The position numbers and the translations under genes are program-made. Under the pieces are notes generated by a model. The model was given only the letters and a program-made list of their open reading frames with translations, did no database searches and was not told the DNA's origin. This document shows positions 4,500 through 15,858 of a stretch of 16,397 nt of DNA, piece after piece (position 1 is the stretch's first letter; every line of letters starts with the position of its first letter). The DNA is from a virus (lineage: Duplodnaviria > Heunggongvirae > Uroviricota > Caudoviricetes): positions 1 to 16,397 of IMG/VR virus record IMGVR_UViG_2778261693_000004; one strand, given 5' to 3'.

Positions 4500-5351
4500 A
4501 TGATAAATTATGTCTACGGCGAACAACTGTACCAGGAGTTCGTCAGCTTCAGGGATCTCTTTCTAAAAAAAGCTGTTGCACGCGCCCAACACGTTGATGC
4601 CGCCAGCGACGGTCGTCCTGTTCGCCCGGTTGTCGTTCTGCCGTTCAAAGAAACGGACAGCATTCAGGCTGAAATTGATAAATGGACTTTAATGGCGCGG
4701 GAACTGGAACAGTACCCAGACCTCAATATCCCAAAGACTATTTTATATCCAGTGCCTAACATCCTTCGCGGTGTACGTAAGGTTACAACTTATCAGACAG
4801 AAGCTGTGAACAGCGTCAACATGACCGCTGGCCGCATTATTCATCTGATTGATAAGGATATTCGCATCCAAAAAAGCGCGGGGTTCAATGAGCACAGTGC
4901 GAAATACATAGAGAACCTGGAAGCAACAAAAGAGCTAATGAAGCAGTACCCGGAGGATGAAAAATTCCGTATGCGCGTACACGGCTTTAGCGAAACAATG
5001 CTGCGCGTCCACTACATTTCCAGTAGCCCTAACTACAATGATGGTAAATCAGTTAGTTACCATGTGCCACTGTGTGGCGTGTTTATCTGCGATGAAACCC
5101 TCCGTGATGGAATCATCATCAACGGTGAATTCGAGAAAGCAAAATTTAGCCTTTATGACTCCATAGAACCGATCATCTGCGACCGCTGGCCGCAGGCAAA
5201 AATATATCGCCTGGCAGATATTGAAAATGTAAAAAAACAAATTGCCATCACTCGCGAAGAGAAAAAGGTCAAATCAGCCGCATCAGTTACGCGCAGTCGT
5301 AAAACTAAGAAGGGGCAGCCAGTAAACGACAACCCCGAAAGCGCGCAATAA
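4500..5351 (+). CDS. c1: C1 prophage repressor
   Basis: 283 aa, the length I recall for P1 C1. GGAGGAGG Shine-Dalgarno. Follows coi, about 0.7 kb from loxP. Window carries nine copies of its operator motif. Confidence 0.85.
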   Translation: MINYVYGEQLYQEFVSFRDLFLKKAVARAQHVDAASDGRPVRPVVVLPFKETDSIQAEIDKWTLMARELEQYPDLNIPKTILYPVPNILRGVRKVTTYQTEAVNSVNMTAGRIIHLIDKDIRIQKSAGFNEHSAKYIENLEATKELMKQYPEDEKFRMRVHGFSETMLRVHYISSSPNYNDGKSVSYHVPLCGVFICDETLRDGIIINGEFEKAKFSLYDSIEPIICDRWPQAKIYRLADIENVKKQIAITREEKKVKSAASVTRSRKTKKGQPVNDNPESAQ

Positions 5352-5354
5352 ATT

Positions 5355-5376
5355 ATGCCCGGCATCAACCGGGCAT
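5355..5376. terminator. Hairpin between convergent c1 and antirepressor genes, possible bidirectional terminator
   Basis: ATGCCCGG-catcaa-CCGGGCAT, 8-bp stem, with A/T-rich flanks. Confidence 0.4.
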
Positions 5377-5383
5377 TCTTCCA

Positions 5384-6529
5384 TTATTCAGCCGCCACCG
5401 GTTTTAACAAGCCAGCATCGAGCAGTTTACGCGTCAACCACTGTTGTCCTTTCCCCGTTAATTGGGGCGTCAGCCGTATCTGGTAGCCATCTTCATCATC
5501 CAGCACCACTTCTTTCACTGTGAAATATCCGGCGTTTATGTACTGCTGGAACGGCACATTTTTACGCCCGCCGGACGCTATCAGAATGCCGTTCTCCCGT
5601 AACCAGGCAAACAGCGCGTTTTGCTTCAGCCCAACAACCTTTGCAAAATTACCAATCAGGATCCCCTTAGCCACTGATACACGGTCGGCAAAATCGACCT
5701 TGGGGGCTGCGGCCACCAGTTGTTGATTTAGCTGGTGGGCCTTCTGTTCCAGTAGCTGCTTTTGTTCAGCCAGCTCGGCAGCCAGGCGCAAGGCTTCAGG
5801 TAGTGTTTGGGGGATTGCGACCGGTTGCTGTTCTTTTTGCCGGAAGTAGCTGTCTTCCAGTTTTTCAAAGAATGCCCATGCTTCATCTGTGTTTACGATC
5901 TTAGACATGCGTGCCGCTCCGCGTTCGGCCCAAAGAATTACCTGGCTTGTATATTTGCTAACCAGGTGACTAGTAGTCACCAGCCTTTTAAATTCCTTTA
6001 ATTTTTAACCAGTTAAGAGATAGTAATGCTTACCTTCTTCAAAGCGATCGGAGTTGCGAGACAAATTTTTACGAATATTAGCTTCATCGGTTCCATACCC
6101 CTTAGCAAGAGTTTCGGTCGTTACTACACGCACTCCCAGCCATTCCAGAACGGGAATTTCATCAGACTGATTCTGAACAACCACCAGCTCTGATTCCTGA
6201 ACTGAAGTTGCATGAATTTTTTCTGATTTAACGTTAGTTGCTTTCATTCTGTGTGCCTCCTTGCGTGCTTCGGCTGCGACGGTTGCGTAATTCAGATGAC
6301 CCTGTTCGAGCAGGTATTCACGGATATCGGTCACAGCGATAGCCTTTAAGCGCAGATAAACATCGCGCTTATCGACATCCAGATGCGGGTATTCCTTTTC
6401 AAGAATTGCTGCGAGTTCTTTCGCTGATAGAAGAGATTTAGTGCGGATCATGTAATCCGCAATCTCGTACGATGTTATTCGTGAGTGATTTATTTCCATG
6501 AAGTGGCGTCCCTGCCAGTTAAGTAACAT
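5384..6529 (-). pseudogene. Antirepressor-like gene (ORF6N/Rha-type N-terminal domain plus KilA-C/ANT C-terminal domain) split by an in-frame TAA at 6005-6007
   Basis: ORFs 6005-6529 and 5384-5980 are in the same frame. The upstream ORF stops mid-domain (…SDRFEEGKHYYLLTG*) and the domain continues after the stop (KLKEFKRLVTTSHLV…TDEAWAFFEKLEDSYF). The downstream part carries a KilA-C-like motif (GNFAKVVGLKQNALFAWLRENGIL…PFQQYINAGYF) and begins only at a GTG. Confidence 0.6.
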
Positions 6530-7691: not shown

Positions 7692-7871
7692 TTATCTGCT
7701 GCCCGACATTATCTGTTTAAGCACAACCATTTCCTGACGGCATAACACAGCAATAGCGGTCCTGGCACCAATTTGCTTACTAACCAGGTATTGCTTTATC
7801 TTGCGGCGACTCACGCCATCAAGAAGCATCTTTAACGCTTCACGGGACAATTTGTTGTATTTGCGTGCCAT
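7692..7871 (-). CDS. Small basic protein (59 aa) immediately downstream of doc
   Basis: ATG at 7869-7871, 4 nt after the doc stop (MARKYNKLSREALKMLLDGVSRRKIKQYL…). At the position I recall for P1 pdcA. Confidence 0.45.
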   Translation of the reverse strand: MARKYNKLSREALKMLLDGVSRRKIKQYLVSKQIGARTAIAVLCRQEMVVLKQIMSGSR

Positions 7872-7875
7872 TAAT

Positions 7876-8256
7876 CTACTCCGCAGAACCATACAATCTA
7901 CGTAACGTGGCGGCGACAGAAGATACAGATATCTCGCCAGTCGCAGCGCCTACAGTAAGGTCTGCCAGTTCAGGTGAATCAAATACCTGCACCCCATTAC
8001 GGCGTAGAAATAGCAGCGCACTGTTTAGCGCGGTACGCTTATTGGCATCATTGAATATATGCCCTCTCGCTGTAGCCACCAGGTAGGTGGCGGAGACTTC
8101 GAAAAGGTCGGTGATCTCTTCGTAGGCAACTCTGGCCTGAACTCTCCCGATAATGGCCTCTGCCCTACCCGGATCTGACATTCCCGGCAGGCCGCCGTAG
8201 CGGTTTATATTCGCATCATGAAGCGCAATAAGTTCTTCCGGTGATATATGCCTCAT
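7876..8256 (-). CDS. doc: Doc toxin (Fic-fold kinase) of the phd-doc addiction module
   Basis: 126 aa ([22 protein letters not shown]…[23 protein letters not shown]…), recognised as P1 Doc. Its start overlaps the phd stop. Confidence 0.95.
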
Positions 8257-8477
8257 TATCGGTTAACCAGTTCCTTGTTGGTGGAGTCCAGGGTGTCAAA
8301 CAGGGATGCAAATTCAGCATCCAGCGCCGCTTTTTTGTAGGCTTCGAAAGTAGCCTTGCTGACAATTACTGCTGGCTCACGGCCTCTGCGGGTGATTTCA
8401 ACCTCTTCCCCGGCTTCAACATTGTTGAGCACTTCAGAAAGGTTGCCGCGCGCGGTACGGAAGTTAATGGATTGCAT
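8256..8477 (-). CDS. phd: Phd antitoxin
   Basis: 73 aa from the ATG at 8475-8477 ([49 protein letters not shown]…), recognised as P1 Phd. GAGGTG Shine-Dalgarno. Confidence 0.93.
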
Positions 8478-8484
8478 AAACACC

Positions 8485-9698: not shown

Positions 9699-10055
9699 AT
9701 GGCTAAAATCGAGTACCATCGCGATCGCGGTAATTACCTGGAAATATACGATCATGAATCTCTTAACGATATCAACGATGCGTTATATGAATACTGTGAA
9801 AAAACGAGCATCACAGATGCACCTGATGCATTTGTCGAGCTGCCGGTATATCTCCGCGACATCTATGCAATACGAACACCGCCCGTATCGGTGATTCACA
9901 TTGGCTATGTCCGCCTGTCCATCGAAGAAGATGAAGATCGTTATATCGTGCGCCACTATACATTGGACAGAAAAGAACTTCCTAATGAATGGAACATGAG
10001 TAATTTCTACAACGGTGAATATGGCTTAAAATCCGCTAATAATTTACGGTCATAA
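9699..10055 (+). CDS. Hypothetical 118-aa protein, translationally coupled to the upstream gene
   Basis: ATG at 9699 directly follows TGA at 9696-9698. AGGGGA Shine-Dalgarno. Sequence not recognised. Confidence 0.55.
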   Translation: MAKIEYHRDRGNYLEIYDHESLNDINDALYEYCEKTSITDAPDAFVELPVYLRDIYAIRTPPVSVIHIGYVRLSIEEDEDRYIVRHYTLDRKELPNEWNMSNFYNGEYGLKSANNLRS

Positions 10056-10900
10056 TCTATACAGGCATGTATAACAACAACGAGCCTATTAGCTGTCAAC
10101 AACGTTATTTCCTCAAATAAGAAAAAGCAGAAAACAAATTGTTTAAGGTCACAAATTGTGGCCTTGATGGAGGAGGGAGGCTTATTGGCTATGGCTAAAA
10201 ATCAAATTAGACACTTCATGTTGCTGTAGCTCATCAAGATCCGAGGCCACAAAACCTTTTCCGAAAAACTTCACAAGTAACTCACTAGCCGCATCATTGT
10301 CACCTATTACACGAAAGTCATACGGCAACGTCGCAAGTTGACGATGTAATCCTGCTGAGAAAGTCGAATCTAACAGCGCCCAGAATTCCCACCGCAGGAT
10401 AATACTCGCCTCTTAATACTGTATATATGTTGTTACGATATGTTTTTCTGTCTCTAAAAAAAGATGTTTGAAGGGGATAAAAATATACAATTCCAACAAA
10501 CGTTATTTTTAACAATTTTTTTCTTTGCGTTGACTTTCCCGGACACCTTGTCTGACCTAAGGTGCGCGAAAGCCACTTTTTCCTTCCTGAGTTATCCACA
10601 AAGTTATGCACTTGCAAGAGGGCCATTTTCTACATATTGTGGTGGCTAACAGATGAAATGAATGTAGATTAATTGAAGATAAGGAGAAAATTTGAGATGC
10701 AATCATGACGTTAATAGATAGGGTCTGCATTACAGACCCCACCCGCATCAAGGAATTAGCCGTTCCCTGATGTTTTTCCGAAAACATGTGCCGTAAGCTC
10801 ACGTTAACGACTTTCATTCACCGAATCCAACTATATAGGGGTTGGGTTTCTACGTCAACGTGAGCAAGTGCACCTTTACATTTGACAAGGAACCACCTGA

Positions 10901-11038
10901 ATGAACGCTTTTTTTCAGTTCCTGAGTGCATTTTTAGATGCGCCTATTATTAGCCAGATTCTGGCTATTATCCTCATCATCGTTTTGATTTTGCTTTTAA
11001 GGTCAGTAAAAAATGGAATTATGCACTGGCTTACTTAA
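10901..11038 (+). CDS. Small hydrophobic peptide (45 aa), single predicted transmembrane helix
   Basis: MNAFFQFLSAFLDAPIISQILAIILIIVLILLLRSVKNGIMHWLT with AAGGAA 8 nt upstream. Sits in an otherwise ORF-poor AT-rich region. Confidence 0.3.
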   Translation: MNAFFQFLSAFLDAPIISQILAIILIIVLILLLRSVKNGIMHWLT

Positions 11039-11113
11039 TGTTTCAGTGAAACATTAAAATCTCCTTGATGTGGAAACAATCATTTTCTGTATGTGCTGGT
11101 GGGCACCTGTAGT

Positions 11114-11476
11114 TCAGCTTTCGTTGGCATTTAACTTCGTCTTTGCTTTCTCCACCAGCAACTTCCAGATGCCTATTTCATTAGCAGCCGCCTTGATGGC
11201 GGCATAAAAAGCATCTTGCTGATCGTAACGCTGGATCTGTTTTTTCAGTTTTGCCTCCACCAATTTAATTTCATTACGTGCTTTCTGAAGCCGCATCACC
11301 GCCCGGTTACGTCTGTTCTTGTATAGCGTGTTAATCTCTGACAATTGCTTTAATTTACCAGCCTGACTGCGGATTATCGCCTCCCTGGCTTCTGCCGTGC
11401 GTCTCATCTGATCTCTTAAGAGTTCACCGTTTTCGATAATTCTTTCAAGGTGTTTGATGTGATCTGCAACTCTCAT
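11114..11476 (-). CDS. Hypothetical 120-aa basic, probably coiled-coil protein; last gene of a five- or six-gene minus-strand operon
   Basis: Start overlaps the stop of the upstream 293-aa gene. Lys/Arg/Glu-rich heptad-like sequence. Confidence 0.6.
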   Translation of the reverse strand: MRVADHIKHLERIIENGELLRDQMRRTAEAREAIIRSQAGKLKQLSEINTLYKNRRNRAVMRLQKARNEIKLVEAKLKKQIQRYDQQDAFYAAIKAAANEIGIWKLLVEKAKTKLNANES

Positions 11477-12354
11477 ACTTCACCCTCGCTTGTATCACCA
11501 GCGTCCACCAACGACAATAAAGCCCTGGCCATCTTATGAACCAACAGTGCATCAATAATGCCAAGCGTATGCCCCGGCTTAATGTTTAATGCTGCCTCAA
11601 GATGACACCTTTCCAGACCGCTTTTCTCGGCTTGTTTATGATGATATGGCGTAATAACGTCGCCCAAAACACGGCTAATTCTTTCTCGTAATTGCTGGGT
11701 GCCAGCACACTTGATCGCTGTATCGTGGAGACGGTTAACCAGTTCGCGATAAACATGCGGCTTAATGCGGATACGTTCACCGGTGACGCCCTTTCCTGGC
11801 GTAGGCACCGAACTATCCGGAATATCCGGATAGTTGCCAGCCAGTCTACGCAAAACAGCCTTAATTGCATCAATACGGTCATCATCAACTTTTTCTACAA
11901 TATTGGAATTTAAATACTTCGAAGCCTTGCTATGCCAATCGCTGGTTTTAGGGTCTTGTCCATCCATCAAACGCCAAGCTTCAGCGATTAACTCATAGCC
12001 AGTAACAGTGGCTTCCTGCGCATCACCAATCAGTTGTGTGATCTCTCTTTCAAGCATGCTTAGAGCGTTAGGCATTGGTTTTTCTTCCGGTACTACTGGA
12101 ACGGGGGGAGCGGCGTAGACCTCAATAATTCCATTATCAATAGGCCATTCTCCATCCTTGAGGTAGTCACTTGTGCCGTCAACTTGCTGTTCTGCAATGT
12201 GGAATGCACCTATTGGTTTTGCTTCCAGTGATGCCAGAGCAATTCGTGCCAGTTCTTCCGCTTCTTCTGCTGGCAGTACAACGTTGCTACCAGGTCCGTA
12301 TGTTTCGCGCCACTGCTTGATTGTCAGTAGTCGCTCTTTGGTAATAGTGGTCAT
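11473..12354 (-). CDS. Hypothetical 293-aa protein
   Basis: Long ORF overlapping both neighbours by 4 nt (operon coupling). Sequence not recognised. Confidence 0.65.
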   Translation of the reverse strand: MTTITKERLLTIKQWRETYGPGSNVVLPAEEAEELARIALASLEAKPIGAFHIAEQQVDGTSDYLKDGEWPIDNGIIEVYAAPPVPVVPEEKPMPNALSMLEREITQLIGDAQEATVTGYELIAEAWRLMDGQDPKTSDWHSKASKYLNSNIVEKVDDDRIDAIKAVLRRLAGNYPDIPDSSVPTPGKGVTGERIRIKPHVYRELVNRLHDTAIKCAGTQQLRERISRVLGDVITPYHHKQAEKSGLERCHLEAALNIKPGHTLGIIDALLVHKMARALLSLVDAGDTSEGEV

Positions 12355-12866
12355 GCCGCGTTTCCTTCTTTCTTATTAACAATTACACCGTCATATATTT
12401 CATTAAGGTGCCCTCTCAACTCCATGCGCCTTAATGCAGATAACATGTAATCGCATTCAACCTGCTTATTTCCAGTAAATGGCTTATCGTCAGGATTACC
12501 CCAACAGCAATTACCCTTGGGCCACCCATGTACTTTCCGTACTCTTCCGTTAACAACGTGAAGTAATCCCCAGCCAGGTGGTAAATCCTCAATTGAAATA
12601 ATTCCCGGCTCACTAATAAAGAATCGCCAGTCGCCCATTCCAAGAGACGGATTTTTACGAAAACGCTTTTTTCTATCTGCCAACAAGTCAGCACGAGAAC
12701 ACTTCGCCTCTATCAGGCATGATGCTGAATTTCTGAATCCCATAGCATCTGGCTGTTCTCCGGTACTGGTTACAGCTATAAAGCGGTCATGAAAACAAAC
12801 CTTGAACCCGTTGCGCTTAAGGAACTTGTACGCAATCTGACAGAGTTCGCGGTGTGTTAACGCCAT
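12351..12866 (-). CDS. Putative PD-(D/E)xK-fold nuclease (MmcB-like)
   Basis: 171 aa with a D…E-x-K signature (…GEQPDAMGFRNSASCLIEAKCSRADLLAD…). ATG overlaps the stop of the upstream PP-loop ORF. Confidence 0.55.
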   Translation of the reverse strand: MALTHRELCQIAYKFLKRNGFKVCFHDRFIAVTSTGEQPDAMGFRNSASCLIEAKCSRADLLADRKKRFRKNPSLGMGDWRFFISEPGIISIEDLPPGWGLLHVVNGRVRKVHGWPKGNCCWGNPDDKPFTGNKQVECDYMLSALRRMELRGHLNEIYDGVIVNKKEGNAA

Positions 12867-12867
12867 A

Positions 12868-13234
12868 TCACTCTCCTTTGATGCGAATGCCAGCGTCAGA
12901 CATCATATGCAGATACTCAACTGCATCCTGAACCCATTGACCGCCAATCCCGTAATAGCGATGCGTAATGATGTCGATAGTTACTAACGGGTCTTGTTCG
13001 ATTAACTTCCGCAGAAACTCTTCCAGGTCACCAGTGCAGTGCTTGATGACAGGAGTTTTCCCAGGATGGCGAACAACAAGAAACTGATTTCCGACTTCAC
13101 GGACTTCGTTGCTTTCCAGTTCTGCTATCCATAAAAATGAAATGGACGCTAACGCCAGCTTTTCGCTGTGCTTCCATCAGATGAACGAGATAAGCCGATG
13201 TTCGTCCACCTGAAAAGCTGACGACTTGATGCAT
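12868..13234 (-). pseudogene. PP-loop (SGGxxS) ATP-pyrophosphatase-like gene, apparently frameshifted
   Basis: ATG at 13232-13234 gives MHQVVSFSGGRTSAYLVHLMEAQRKAGVSVHFIFMDSRTGKQRSP*. A second frame overlapping it by about 80 nt continues to 12868 (…NQFLVVRHPGKTPVIKHCTGDLEEFLRKLIEQDPLVTIDII…). The switch lies near a T5 run / GGAAAG around 13100-13135. Confidence 0.45.
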
Positions 13235-13243
13235 ACTCACGGT

Positions 13244-13822
13244 TTATTCCTGAATGCGCTTAAACTCGATTACCCATACCAACGGGTTAGATAGCCAGTT
13301 ATCCTGCCCGTAAATACTGCGCCAGATATCACCAAAACCAACGCGATAAACAGCTTCAGATGGCGTAATCTTGTACGTCGCCGGAGTTGCGCCTTCTGCT
13401 TTAGCATCTTCCTCGCTCATGTCATGCAGCCGTTCCACACGCACGTCGGTAATTTCCAAAAGAATGCGCGATGCCCAGCGCGGCATGTGAATTGATGGCG
13501 TCCACTTTTCTGATACTGGTTTATTACAAACCTCGACCGGAACCCGGTGCGTTTGTTCTGTCCAGGAGTTACGCACGCTTGCGCGATAAACCAGCGTTGC
13601 GACGTCCGTCGCTTTGCCATGTACCCGGTAGGTTTCGCGAACCCAAATACGATCGCCCGGTTGACCATATGGACAATGCTTGGCAAGCAACTCTGCGGCC
13701 ACTGCCCGTCCATAGAATTTTTCTTCAACAATCCTGCGAGTCTGTGTTTTATTCCCGCCAAGAATTGCCCGGACCATCTCATCGTTAAAAATCATGCCGC
13801 GCTCTTTCACTTCGCCTTTCAT
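13244..13822 (-). CDS. ASCH-domain-like protein
   Basis: 192 aa. N-terminal MIFNDEMVRAILGGNKTQTRR fits the ASCH G-x-K-x-x-T-x-R signature. GGGGG Shine-Dalgarno. Confidence 0.6.
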   Translation of the reverse strand: MKGEVKERGMIFNDEMVRAILGGNKTQTRRIVEEKFYGRAVAAELLAKHCPYGQPGDRIWVRETYRVHGKATDVATLVYRASVRNSWTEQTHRVPVEVCNKPVSEKWTPSIHMPRWASRILLEITDVRVERLHDMSEEDAKAEGATPATYKITPSEAVYRVGFGDIWRSIYGQDNWLSNPLVWVIEFKRIQE

Positions 13823-13831
13823 GCATCCCCC

Positions 13832-13918
13832 TTACCCATGTGCGACGATGCCGCCAAAAGTGATAGAGAACAGCCAGAAATAGATCGCGGCCATAATGAT
13901 TTTGAATGCCGTGTTCAT
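13832..13918 (-). CDS. Small hydrophobic peptide (28 aa), first ORF of the operon
   Basis: MNTAFKIIMAAIYFWLFSITFGGIVAHG with AGGAG 9 nt upstream. Its stop lies 9 nt before the ASCH gene's ATG. Confidence 0.3.
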   Translation of the reverse strand: MNTAFKIIMAAIYFWLFSITFGGIVAHG

Positions 13919-13945
13919 ATTTTCAGCTCCTGTGATTGATTGGAT

Positions 13946-13977
13946 ACATGCCGCGCCTTGCGGCATGTTTTTATTTT
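13946..13977 (+). terminator. Plus-strand rho-independent terminator in the leader of a minus-strand operon
   Basis: ACATGCCGC-gcctt-GCGGCATGT (9-bp GC-rich stem) followed by TTTTTATTTT. No plus-strand gene upstream. Confidence 0.45.
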
Positions 13978-13991
13978 CACTTTCTCTGTTT

Positions 13992-14008
13992 TAAAAATCA
14001 TTATTTAT
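13992..14008 (-). promoter_or_regulatory. C1 operator in front of the ASCH/PP-loop/nuclease operon
   Basis: ttATTTATTAGAGCAAT, 15/17 to the reverse-complement consensus. Confidence 0.7.
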
Positions 14009-14016
14009 TAGAGCAA

Positions 14017-14523
14017 TTATTGTTGATGGAGAAGCGCGTTTTCATACTCCCTGACCATTAACGTAAGCACGCCGTGCCTCCTGAAAACACGCGCCACTTC
14101 AATCTTATCTTCCAGCGCGAACGCAATTTTGCTTAGACCAATTTTCTTAAGGAGATCAATCTTTGCTGGACCGTCATTTCTGTCATCGGTGGCGGGACGC
14201 ATAGATAGCAAAGGCTCTGCCCCATTTGTTACGTGCTTACGCAACCAGGCTCGTGTTTTATCCCTGGCTATCTCACAGCGCCCGGTTACAAACCAGAGCG
14301 TGTAAATGCTGGACAACTGGCGCACCATATCAATAACTGGAGTGATGGAAGCATCAGTGTCACAGGCAAGGTTAAACTCGTTCCAGTGCTCTGTTAATGC
14401 ACCGTTGCCAGGCGGTGGAAGTAAATGCAGCCTGTCTTCCGTTGCCTCCGATATCGTTCCATCAATATCTACTATGACAATGTACGGACGTTCCTGGTGT
14501 GCGTGTTTATTGAAAATACTCAA
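14017..14523 (-). CDS. HAD-superfamily phosphatase (polynucleotide 3'-phosphatase-like DxDGT motif)
   Basis: 168 aa with motif I VIVDIDGTIS. TTG start with GAGGAGG Shine-Dalgarno 4 nt upstream. Confidence 0.7.
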   Translation of the reverse strand: MSIFNKHAHQERPYIVIVDIDGTISEATEDRLHLLPPPGNGALTEHWNEFNLACDTDASITPVIDMVRQLSSIYTLWFVTGRCEIARDKTRAWLRKHVTNGAEPLLSMRPATDDRNDGPAKIDLLKKIGLSKIAFALEDKIEVARVFRRHGVLTLMVREYENALLHQQ

Positions 14524-14542
14524 ATGCCCTCCTCATTGGACG

Positions 14543-14576
14543 AAAAAAATGCTGGTGGGCGCACTCCACCAGCATT
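14543..14576 (-). terminator. Minus-strand rho-independent terminator after the 420-aa gene
   Basis: AATGCTGGTGG-gcgcact-CCACCAGCATT (11-bp stem) with A7 on the plus strand 5' of it, i.e. a U-run after the hairpin on minus-strand RNA. Confidence 0.55.
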
Positions 14577-14595
14577 AAAAGTGACACTGTAACTA

Positions 14596-15858
14596 TCAGC
14601 GAACGTAAATAGTGCCGCCGTTCACTTTTTCCCATGCATCGCTAAGTGCATAGCAAACATCAAGAAGTCTTCTTGCCGCTGTTTCCTCTAAACCCAATTC
14701 GACAACCAACTGCTCATGACGGCGGGTAACCACATCAAACAGGGTATGCAGCCCTTTAGCTGCCAGATCATCAATAAATTCCGGTTCGAACGGCAGCTCT
14801 GCATCTGCCAACATAACCTCTTGCGCCCACTCAACTCGACGGACCAGTTCCGGGCGGCGGCTTTCCATCTCTTTACAGATCAATTCATGGAAGAACTCTA
14901 CCCAACCTTCCGGCTGGAACTCGCGGAAAATTGCCAACGGCTGGAAGTTTGGCATCAACCATTCGTTGATTCGGATATCAATGGCATAGCCCATGTCGCA
15001 GCAGAACTGATAAGCAAAGTCCAGCTTAGAAACGATATAAGGACGCTCGTTATTGAACTCTTTAGGCGATGAGATCCCATAAGCCAGGAGGCGCGGGAAG
15101 AATGAGATTTGCCCTAACGTCGGATGGAGTTTGCTTGCAGGAAAACGGCGCTCAGTAATGCCATACATTTCCTTCTTGAGCGTCGCAAATTTAGCATTTT
15201 CATTAACCAGCGCGGTAACCTCTGCTTTTTTATTAGCAAATGCCACGCGCGCTTCGCTTGCATCTTTAATAGTTTTTTTGAGCTGTTGGTTAAGATCGGC
15301 GACCTGCTTACGCAGTTCCTGTCGCTCGCTTTTAGCTTTGTTATAGCGTTTCTCAAGGTTAAAAGGATCAAGTTTCATGATCTCTTTATATTGAGATTTT
15401 AGCGTTGAAATCTGTGAGTTCCGCAGTTCAACCATCGCGGTCATTTCATTGAGTTTTGTTTCCAGCTCAATGCTTATACGTTCGGCATTATCAGCACGCT
15501 GGTTGGCGTCATGCGTCGCATCGTCGATCGCGTCCTGTTGCTGGCGTTTCAAATGTTCAATTTGCAGCTGAAGCTCTTCAATTTCTTTACCCTTCAGACC
15601 GAGATCCAACTGCATATTTTCAGCTGCATCTACCAGGGAGTTATGGCTATCAGCTTCTGCGTTATAAACATCAATAAGCTGTGCGTGAAGCATCTCCGCT
15701 GACTGAACCGCATTATCAAAAAAACGCGCTGTGAGGTCATCACAACTAACGCGGCGTTGCGCGGCCCGGATGTTCTGGATAATGGCCGGGATACCGGCAT
15801 TCAGGACGTCAGGGATAGATACATTTTCGATTGATTGGTTTTGTGCTGAAGTGCTCAT
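14596..15858 (-). CDS. Hypothetical 420-aa protein, N-terminal coiled-coil plus a C-terminal globular domain
   Basis: Long ORF; residues about 80-220 are heptad-rich (…EIEELQLQIEHLKRQQQDAIDD…). Sequence not recognised. Confidence 0.65.
   Translation of the reverse strand: MSTSAQNQSIENVSIPDVLNAGIPAIIQNIRAAQRRVSCDDLTARFFDNAVQSAEMLHAQLIDVYNAEADSHNSLVDAAENMQLDLGLKGKEIEELQLQIEHLKRQQQDAIDDATHDANQRADNAERISIELETKLNEMTAMVELRNSQISTLKSQYKEIMKLDPFNLEKRYNKAKSERQELRKQVADLNQQLKKTIKDASEARVAFANKKAEVTALVNENAKFATLKKEMYGITERRFPASKLHPTLGQISFFPRLLAYGISSPKEFNNERPYIVSKLDFAYQFCCDMGYAIDIRINEWLMPNFQPLAIFREFQPEGWVEFFHELICKEMESRRPELVRRVEWAQEVMLADAELPFEPEFIDDLAAKGLHTLFDVVTRRHEQLVVELGLEETAARRLLDVCYALSDAWEKVNGGTIYVR

Follow-up and report, generated by a model that had tools for sequence, protein, structure and literature searches.

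Do two short hydrophobic reading frames in a P1-like phage-plasmid encode real peptides, and, if so, is either of them a toxin? The DNA that raises this question is a stretch of 16,397 nucleotides (nt) from IMG/VR record IMGVR_UViG_2778261693_000004, hereafter called the window. It comes from a P1/P7-type phage-plasmid, and across positions 10300-14600 it shares 97.8% identity with phage P7 and about 96% with P1, the classic model phage and prototype of a large phage-plasmid group that is now spreading resistance genes. A preliminary description of the window had pointed to an open reading frame (ORF) of 45 amino acids (aa), here ORF-A, and another of 28 aa, here ORF-B, and had proposed that they could be type I toxin-like, holin-like or leader peptides. 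Judged from their sequences, both would belong among the small membrane peptides of phages and plasmids, and they are probably genuine single-pass membrane-peptide genes of P1-family phage-plasmids. We propose that they operate in two regulatory settings, in which ORF-A would be checked by an RNA in a toxin-antitoxin-like arrangement and ORF-B would be an early peptide under C1 repression. To this statement as a whole we assign a probability of about 0.4.

Both frames exist where the preliminary description had placed them, each preceded by a Shine-Dalgarno sequence, with ORF-B on the minus strand. The features concerned, in window positions, are these:

10901-11038, plus strand: ORF-A, a hydrophobic peptide of 45 aa with one predicted membrane pass, candidate toxin or small membrane protein (ATG at 10901, TAA at 11036-11038).

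10887-10892, plus strand: Shine-Dalgarno-like AAGGAA of moderate strength, 9 nt before the ORF-A ATG.

13832-13918, minus strand: ORF-B, a 28-aa hydrophobic peptide, predicted first cistron of a C1-repressed operon (ATG at 13918-13916, TAA at 13834-13832).

13927-13931, minus strand: strong Shine-Dalgarno AGGAG, 8 nt before the ORF-B ATG and conserved in the alignment.

The translations are MNAFFQFLSAFLDAPIISQILAIILIIVLILLLRSVKNGIMHWLT for ORF-A and MNTAFKIIMAAIYFWLFSITFGGIVAHG for ORF-B. Hydrophobicity was scored as the Kyte-Doolittle maximum over 19 residues, and on this scale the two frames rank first and second among the 119 ATG-initiated ORFs of 25-70 aa found in six frames. A single hydrophobic helix, as originally described, is seen in each. 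Only ORF-A is a clear outlier, with a maximum of 3.10 at residues 15-33 and a basic C-terminal tail; the ORF-B maximum of 2.10 is not, given that the next ORFs reach 2.08 and 2.06. ORFs of such length are by themselves unremarkable in AT-rich DNA, and conservation carries the case.

ORF-A is present in 229 PLSDB plasmid records, 52 IMG/VR contigs and 19 metagenome contigs, and in 216 of 5,426 E. coli genomes, where it is nearly always plasmid-borne. Its alleles are only three: a P7-type, a P1-type and one clade that is ~79% identical in DNA (the diverged clade, or clade 3). The frame is open in all three, and ORF-A is the sole start-codon-bearing ORF of the locus of which this is true. Comparison with the diverged allele reveals 33 substitutions in 135 nt (24%), no gap column and an unmoved stop codon, and 26 of the 45 residues are identical, with exchanges mainly among I, V, L and F. 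The Shine-Dalgarno sequence of the diverged clade is GAGGA with an 8-nt spacer, within a stretch that is otherwise 35% diverged. The ratio of non-synonymous to synonymous substitution rates (dN/dS) is 0.41 by the Nei-Gojobori method in this single deep comparison. When the substitutions were shuffled in a simulation, the frame remained open in 30% of the sets, the observed BLOSUM62 score was reached in 13%, and both outcomes were obtained in 5%. Indel events number ~5 across the 162 nt of flanks (about 1 per 30 nt) and none across the 138 nt of ORF-A, where the flank rate predicts ~4; the probability of finding zero is about 0.01-0.09, depending on the choice of flanks. Support for ORF-A as a protein-coding gene under purifying selection (frame kept, dN/dS below 1, simulation p of about 0.05) is weak to moderate because it comes from a single deep comparison. 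We consider it likely that ORF-A is translated.

This frame is not the one that reference annotations recognize. The upfM, upfN and upfO genes of P1 (upf for 'unknown protein function') and Upf91.3 of P7 occupy the same DNA as the ORF-A cassette, and the P1 and P7 records place the following feature opposite ORF-A, which is itself not annotated:

10818-10931, minus strand: upfM/Upf91.3 as annotated in P1 and P7, lacking a start codon in the diverged clade.

This annotated frame covers the first 31 nt of ORF-A from the other strand, and upfN and the minus-strand RNA predicted below also overlap. One might take upfM and upfN to be the real genes and ORF-A their antisense shadow, as their annotation in both phages would indicate; PHROG 31823 also matches upfM, but this family was built from those very annotations. 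Several observations make this reading very improbable. Besides the missing start codon of upfM, the upfN frame is broken in the diverged clade by a 1-nt indel, whereas the ORF-A frame survives there, and the conserved C-terminal part of upfM is invariant DNA that coincides with a promoter. As annotated, upfM and upfN are probably artefacts and not genes, and the reference annotation probably has the wrong strand at ORF-A. Elsewhere, the Prokaryotic Genome Annotation Pipeline (PGAP) annotates ORF-A sporadically (WP_000123562.1, and WP_162883679.1 in a diverged plasmid), and the SJ46 and JL22 phage records have a hypothetical protein at this position. ORF-B is likewise absent from the P1 and P7 records; it is a 'membrane protein' in SJ46 and is sometimes called by PGAP in a 44-aa version. 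The remark in the preliminary description that both ORFs fall below the usual annotation cut-off is supported as regards the reference records.

The best-conserved part of the ORF-A locus is the block at 10681-10865, which is 9% diverged versus 24% for ORF-A and 23-35% for the flanks. It contains two features of interest:

10830-10858, minus strand: sigma-70-like promoter TTGACG-17-TATAGT with 10 of 12 matches, corresponding to PupfN as predicted in the P1 record.

10710-10823, minus strand: predicted structured RNA of ~110 nt with three stem-loops, candidate antisense RNA or antitoxin, with inferred ends.

The promoter, reading leftward from 10858 to 10830, is the sole promoter-like site found at the same position in all three clades, and it has one substitution in 29 nt. 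An RNA starting near 10823 and extending leftward is predicted to fold with -43.2 kcal/mol (z = -5.5 versus shuffled sequences), whereas the plus-strand copy yields z = -3.0; the minus strand folds better because its G-U pairs become A-C mismatches on the other strand. The last stem-loop (stem 10721-10727/10733-10739) is terminator-like. The consensus fold is kept across five distinct sequences with one compensatory pair (T10724/A10736 to C/G) and variable loops, and two GU-to-AU changes are meaningful on the minus strand only, which suggests covariation support for the modelled fold that is statistically thin. No Rfam family matches this RNA. Promoter and candidate RNA lie 78-190 nt upstream of the ORF-A ATG, so that the search for antisense RNAs proposed in the preliminary description produced a conserved candidate near ORF-A; at ORF-B, no antisense (plus-strand) promoter was found in 13600-14100.

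The cassette that holds these elements spans ~485 bp, from about 10620 to 11104, where homology to the diverged clade stops. ORF-A is placed between pmgV and the upfM/upfN region, and it is on the opposite strand to all its neighbours. The consensus for the C1 operator has 8 matches in the window, between 1804 and 16158 (up to 3 mismatches allowed), versus 0.1 expected by chance, and none of these lies within 10560-11110. The ORF-A cassette should therefore be active in the lysogen.

We hypothesize that ORF-A is the coding part of a stand-alone mosaic cassette free of C1 control. The sigma-70-like promoter would direct transcription of a tightly folded ~110-nt RNA over the DNA upstream of ORF-A, and this RNA would restrain ORF-A expression in the style of a type I toxin-antitoxin system. 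The peptide would insert into the inner membrane so that its basic C-terminus faces the cytoplasm. The ORF-A frame, the minus-strand promoter motif and the RNA fold are present and conserved; transcription of either strand, overlap of the RNAs, translation and toxicity are what we infer for this cassette.

In type I systems, a small RNA is encoded in or against the leader of the toxin gene, as with hok/sok of plasmid R1 and with ldr/rdl, tisB/istR-1 and zorO/orzO of E. coli. ORF-A has the size and shape of such toxins, being 45 aa long (below about 60) with one transmembrane helix by hydropathy. Its cassette likewise stands alone between genes of a plasmid or prophage, lies outside prophage repressor control, and has, upstream of the ORF on the opposite strand, a conserved structured RNA candidate with its own sigma-70-like promoter. 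Unlike type I systems, ORF-A matches none of the families Hok/Gef, Ldr, Fst, TisB, Ibs and ShoB or any other in sequence, its toxin mRNA has no promoter that we could find, so that any overlap or complementarity of the two RNAs is putative, and the terminator of the candidate RNA has no canonical U-tract. That ORF-A and the minus-strand RNA form a type I toxin-antitoxin-like pair is consequently a tentative proposal. The original suggestion of a type I toxin-like peptide is plausible for ORF-A by layout alone; for ORF-B it does not hold, as this frame is the first cistron behind a C1 operator and has no antisense promoter.

The window also contains phd/doc (~7870-8480), the type II addiction module of P1, which lies ~2.5 kb from ORF-A, is expressed in the lysogen and serves plasmid maintenance. 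It employs a protein antitoxin and shares neither sequence nor mechanism with ORF-A; should the toxin-antitoxin interpretation hold, ORF-A would add a second module, under RNA control. It is possible, if on the unlikely side, that the P1 family carries such a second, unrecognized addiction or defence module, in which a new type I toxin family would be controlled by the ~110-nt RNA and hidden beneath upfM and upfN on the wrong strand.

The evidence for ORF-B comes from polymorphism, counted across 58-74 contigs, and from its setting. The peptide is identical in 67 of 74 contigs. Three polymorphic sites are non-singleton, and all three are synonymous third positions (codons 13, 23 and 25, the last with three alleles); each of the five non-synonymous variants is a singleton. 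Variable sites number 6 of 87 in ORF-B versus 18 of 99 in the 5' leader, and the adjacent pap gene exhibits the expected third-position periodicity. This synonymous excess among common polymorphisms, small in number, suggests that ORF-B is under purifying selection, and we regard its translation as likely. The 44-aa version chosen by PGAP begins at an ATG (13966) that has no Shine-Dalgarno sequence and is located inside a GC-rich hairpin, and the extension carries a common non-synonymous variant and, in one contig, a stop codon. The 28-aa start is favoured both by its Shine-Dalgarno sequence and by the lack of conservation in the extension.

The surroundings of ORF-B include the following features:

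14001-14017, minus strand: C1 operator (Op88 of P1, Op(hea) of P7), differing from the consensus at 2 positions and annotated in the records of both phages.

13946-13978, plus strand: 10-bp GC-rich hairpin followed by a T-run, which serves as an intrinsic terminator for the plus strand and as a leader stem-loop at the 5' end of the operon mRNA from the minus strand.

13244-13822, minus strand: downstream gene, a homologue of the PmgT N-terminus, 9 nt after the ORF-B stop codon, with a weak ASCH match.

The reading we prefer for ORF-B is that of an early small membrane peptide under C1 repression, at the head of a cargo hotspot. It would be the first cistron of the early operon controlled by Op88/Op(hea) and would be produced once the phage is induced or infects a cell. 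Between its stop codon and the next ATG at 13822 there is a spacer of 9 nt (GGGGGATGC), and the Shine-Dalgarno sequence of the next gene abuts the stop codon; translation of ORF-B therefore probably also feeds ribosomes to the following cargo gene. The preliminary description had called ORF-B stop-start coupled to an ASCH gene. Given the spacer, this coupling is only approximate, and the ASCH label is weak (Pfam E = 0.011, 16.9 bits versus a cut-off of 21.2); the encoded protein shares 43% identity with P1 PmgT over the first 239 aa of the latter.

A mosaic breakpoint lies 4 nt after the ORF-B stop codon in three different downstream contexts, and what follows 3' of ORF-B is either a pmgT-type gene or a convergent hsdR. 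This arrangement lends some appeal to an alternative in which ORF-B is merely an upstream ORF, whose translation and not whose peptide matters, through ribosome loading and mRNA opening for the cargo gene. The short gap and the abutting Shine-Dalgarno sequence would serve such a role well, and the position of the breakpoint implies that a conserved unit brings promoter, leader, ORF-B and TAAGGGG to varied cargo genes. However, common variants that are exclusively synonymous and a peptide that is invariant in most contigs are not what this alternative predicts, and ORF-B is also kept in plasmids with the convergent hsdR, where there is nothing to couple to. We consider this alternative improbable. 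A leader peptide, as had also been proposed, fits ORF-B in position. It does not fit in other respects: no attenuator is present between ORF-B and the next gene, the leader has no minus-strand terminator, its fold is ordinary (z = -1.7), only 9 nt precede the next ATG, and the polymorphism suggests that the peptide sequence is selected.

Small membrane regulators such as AcrZ and MgtS are known in bacteria. Like these and the small peptides and upstream ORFs of phage early operons, ORF-B has fewer than 30 aa, one helix and a strong Shine-Dalgarno sequence. It also shares with first-cistron upstream ORFs of phage early operons its place at the head of a repressor-controlled operon and its close coupling to the next gene. 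It has neither homology to these peptides nor a known partner or phenotype, and the likeness is one of functional analogy only. 

An 84-bp relic of ORF-B, cut by IS1 and 98.8% identical to window 13828-13911, occurs downstream of hsdR in many IncF plasmids, for example in plasmid pDA33137-178 (record L007, 2501-2584). This relic testifies to earlier exchange between P1-like and IncF plasmids. The intrinsic terminator upstream of ORF-B (hairpin 13946-13968, 6 GC pairs) is a strong plus-strand signal where all annotated genes are on the minus strand; it could stop convergent transcription (e.g. of hsdR in related plasmids) or stabilize the 5' end of the early operon mRNA.

Several findings weigh against the overall interpretation offered above. 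For ORF-B, conservation rests on very few polymorphic sites, and its neighbourhood is also conserved at the nucleotide level. Neither ORF has a significant match in Pfam, NCBIfam or PHROGs or a homologue outside P1-like elements among 5.8 billion clusters and 1.84 billion representatives, and our literature search found no paper on either of them. ORF-A in particular matches no known toxin family, with no Pfam or NCBIfam match at E <= 1 save an irrelevant one at 0.25. A hairpin that would sequester its Shine-Dalgarno sequence (AGGAAC/GUUCCU) is formed in the window and lost in clade 3. No convincing plus-strand promoter was found for ORF-A, the best candidate being TTGCAA-17-TATTGT at 10612, with 8 of 12 matches and weaker in clade 3. 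Complementarity between the minus-strand RNA and the ribosome-binding region of ORF-A amounts to 7 nt, which is at chance level. The terminator-like hairpin of the RNA has a poor U-tract and was not called by the terminator scan, and the minus-strand promoter may instead start a longer leftward mRNA, as the designation PupfN in the P1 record would imply. Finally, the nucleotide divergence of ORF-A equals that of its non-coding flanks, a T-rich strand easily gives hydrophobic ORFs, and the substitutions are spread over the codon positions as 12/8/13, so that purifying selection on ORF-A is weak at best.

These last observations raise the possibility that ORF-A is untranslated. The functional element would then be non-coding, consisting of the minus-strand RNA and its promoter or of a DNA site such as the palindrome 10797-10809/10854-10866, and the 45-codon frame would be a by-product of the T-rich spacer between this element and the end of the pmgT-pmgV operon. 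A divergence of 24% amid flanks of 23-35%, the codon-position spread and the missing plus-strand promoter are all consistent with this explanation, as is the fraction of simulated sets that leave the frame open. So are the alleles in which ORF-A is disrupted. At least five independent disruptions were identified, comprising two IS1 insertions near the 3' end in different clades (L162 and P0024), two homopolymer frameshifts (L006/P0025 and P0001) and one other insertion (P0002); these are compatible alike with dispensability and with selection against a harmful peptide. In contrast, a non-coding spacer does not account for the absence of indels over 138 nt, for the retention of start codon, Shine-Dalgarno sequence and stop codon amid variable sequence, or for amino-acid changes that are conservative. 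Moreover, ORF-A is intact in 69 of 71 contigs and is called by PGAP. On this evidence we judge a purely non-coding locus to be rather unlikely.

A different possibility is that both peptides are real and neither is a toxin. ORF-A would in this case be a lysogen-expressed moron membrane peptide that, for example, modulates a host membrane protein or excludes phages, ORF-B would be an early lytic membrane peptide, and the upstream block would represent ordinary regulation or an unrelated small RNA. This proposal shares its coding evidence with the toxin reading, and neither peptide resembles a toxin family. The distribution is also compatible with it, in that ~40% of the plasmids with ORF-B also have ORF-A (229 versus 570 records) and the cassette belongs to variable accessory region 8 of P1-like plasmids (PMC9603915). 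The region is dispensable for lytic growth, as judged from a CRISPR interference screen that did not include upfM (PMC10695390). What this proposal leaves unexplained is why the structured RNA and its promoter should be the best-conserved part of the cassette, and why the cassette travels as a single unit. We deem it possible, if on the unlikely side.

The preliminary description had further suggested that the peptides might be holins. Each has the single hydrophobic helix of a holin or antiholin, and ORF-A has the basic C-terminal tail. However, neither ORF is part of a lysis cassette: no endolysin or spanin gene adjoins them, and their neighbours are pmgV, pmgT-like genes, pap and lxr. No holin family matches either peptide, and the promoter of ORF-B is early and C1-controlled, not late. 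A holin role for one or both is thus extremely improbable.

The searches that underlie these statements recovered only the known alleles of ORF-A, whether by word-indexed search, by tblastn on plasmids and phages, or by an exhaustive phmmer search of 1.84 billion representatives; for ORF-B they returned only near-identical copies. The GTDB representative genomes contain no ORF-A by either a back-translated scan or a 21-mer scan, scans of IMG/VR with other conserved anchors yielded no new ORF-A clade, and two seeming further relatives (L142 and L144) were chance 18-mer matches. BLASTP produced no alignment between ORF-A and LdrA, and a resemblance to Ldr/Fst through a 'D-AP-I' motif found no support from BLASTP or Pfam. 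A 45-aa hydrophobic ORF at 13270-13407 is out of frame within the pmgT-like gene and was dismissed as spurious. A P1vir transcriptome paper (PMC8201110) is silent on the ORF-A/ORF-B region.

If ORF-A and ORF-B are real, the P1 and P7 reference annotations need correction, since two small membrane peptides are missing from them. Should the ORF-A cassette prove to be a toxin module under RNA control, P1 would possess, beside phd/doc, a second device for maintenance or abortive infection; this would matter for how stably P1-like resistance plasmids are kept, and a new toxin family would be gained. ORF-B would be the fixed head of a cargo hotspot, where varied gene sets, a type I restriction system among them, begin 4 nt past its stop codon, and recognizing this hotspot helps to interpret the mosaic structure of P1-like elements.

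Further features of the ORF-A cassette are as follows:

10680-10770, plus strand: TAAGGAG and a mini-ORF with ATG at 10697, overlapping the ATG at 10705 of a 21-aa ORF, with highly conserved nucleotides.

11035-11057, no strand assigned: AT-rich hairpin over the ORF-A stop codon, retained in the diverged clade, where a compensatory change has turned one T-A pair into C-G.

The strong Shine-Dalgarno sequence TAAGGAG is followed after 10 nt by the three codons ATG CAA TCA and a TGA stop, which the diverged clade reduces to a bare ATG TAA. The 21-aa ORF (10705-10770) is probably not protein-coding, and its candidacy as a mok-like leader was rejected, given 6 non-synonymous changes versus 1 synonymous change between clades and an end point 130 nt before ORF-A. 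The hairpin over the stop codon is followed by no U-tract on either strand. A 13-nt imperfect inverted repeat, GCTCACGTTAACG / CGTCAACGTGAGC (10797-10809/10854-10866), brackets the minus-strand promoter and encloses an inner repeat, AATCCAAC / GTTGGGTT; its sequence is invariant, and it might bind a regulator or form a hairpin within a plus-strand leader. Three other candidate signals were discarded. An 8-nt complementarity between the leader (10812-10819) and the start-codon region is missing from the P1-type and clade 3 alleles. A lone LexA box-like site at 10637-10652 contains a mismatch, and the other clades do not retain it. Inspection by eye upstream of ORF-A found no LPhot-like -22/-10 arrangement of a P1 late promoter.

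In the wider neighbourhood, the order on the minus strand according to the P7 and P1 records is pmgS, pap, the C1 operator Op88/Op(hea), pmgT-like genes, pmgV and upfM/upfN, with phd/doc, humD and lxr further left in the window. The eight C1-operator matches mark the C1-controlled promoters of the window. The hot gene of P1 is absent from the window; in its place are a plus-strand ORF of 118 aa (PHROG 5797, function unknown) and unrelated sequence (9699-10055 and 10060-10560), and of an upfO-like frame no more than the first 44 codons are left, at 59% identity. The element also lacks pacA, pacB and most of lpa. Here, ~1 kb at 5351-6529 replaces 3.0 kb of a related P1-like plasmid and encodes the Lpa N-terminus (70 aa) fused to Ant-like anti-repressor sequence, split between two minus-strand ORFs at 6005-6529 and 5384-5980. 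The element may be unable to package DNA. Immediately to the left of the ORF-A cassette, the segment 10575-10619, which all clades conserve, carries a perfect DnaA box (TTATCCACA, 10592-10600), and this segment is found without the cassette in about 88 other plasmids (~110 kb).

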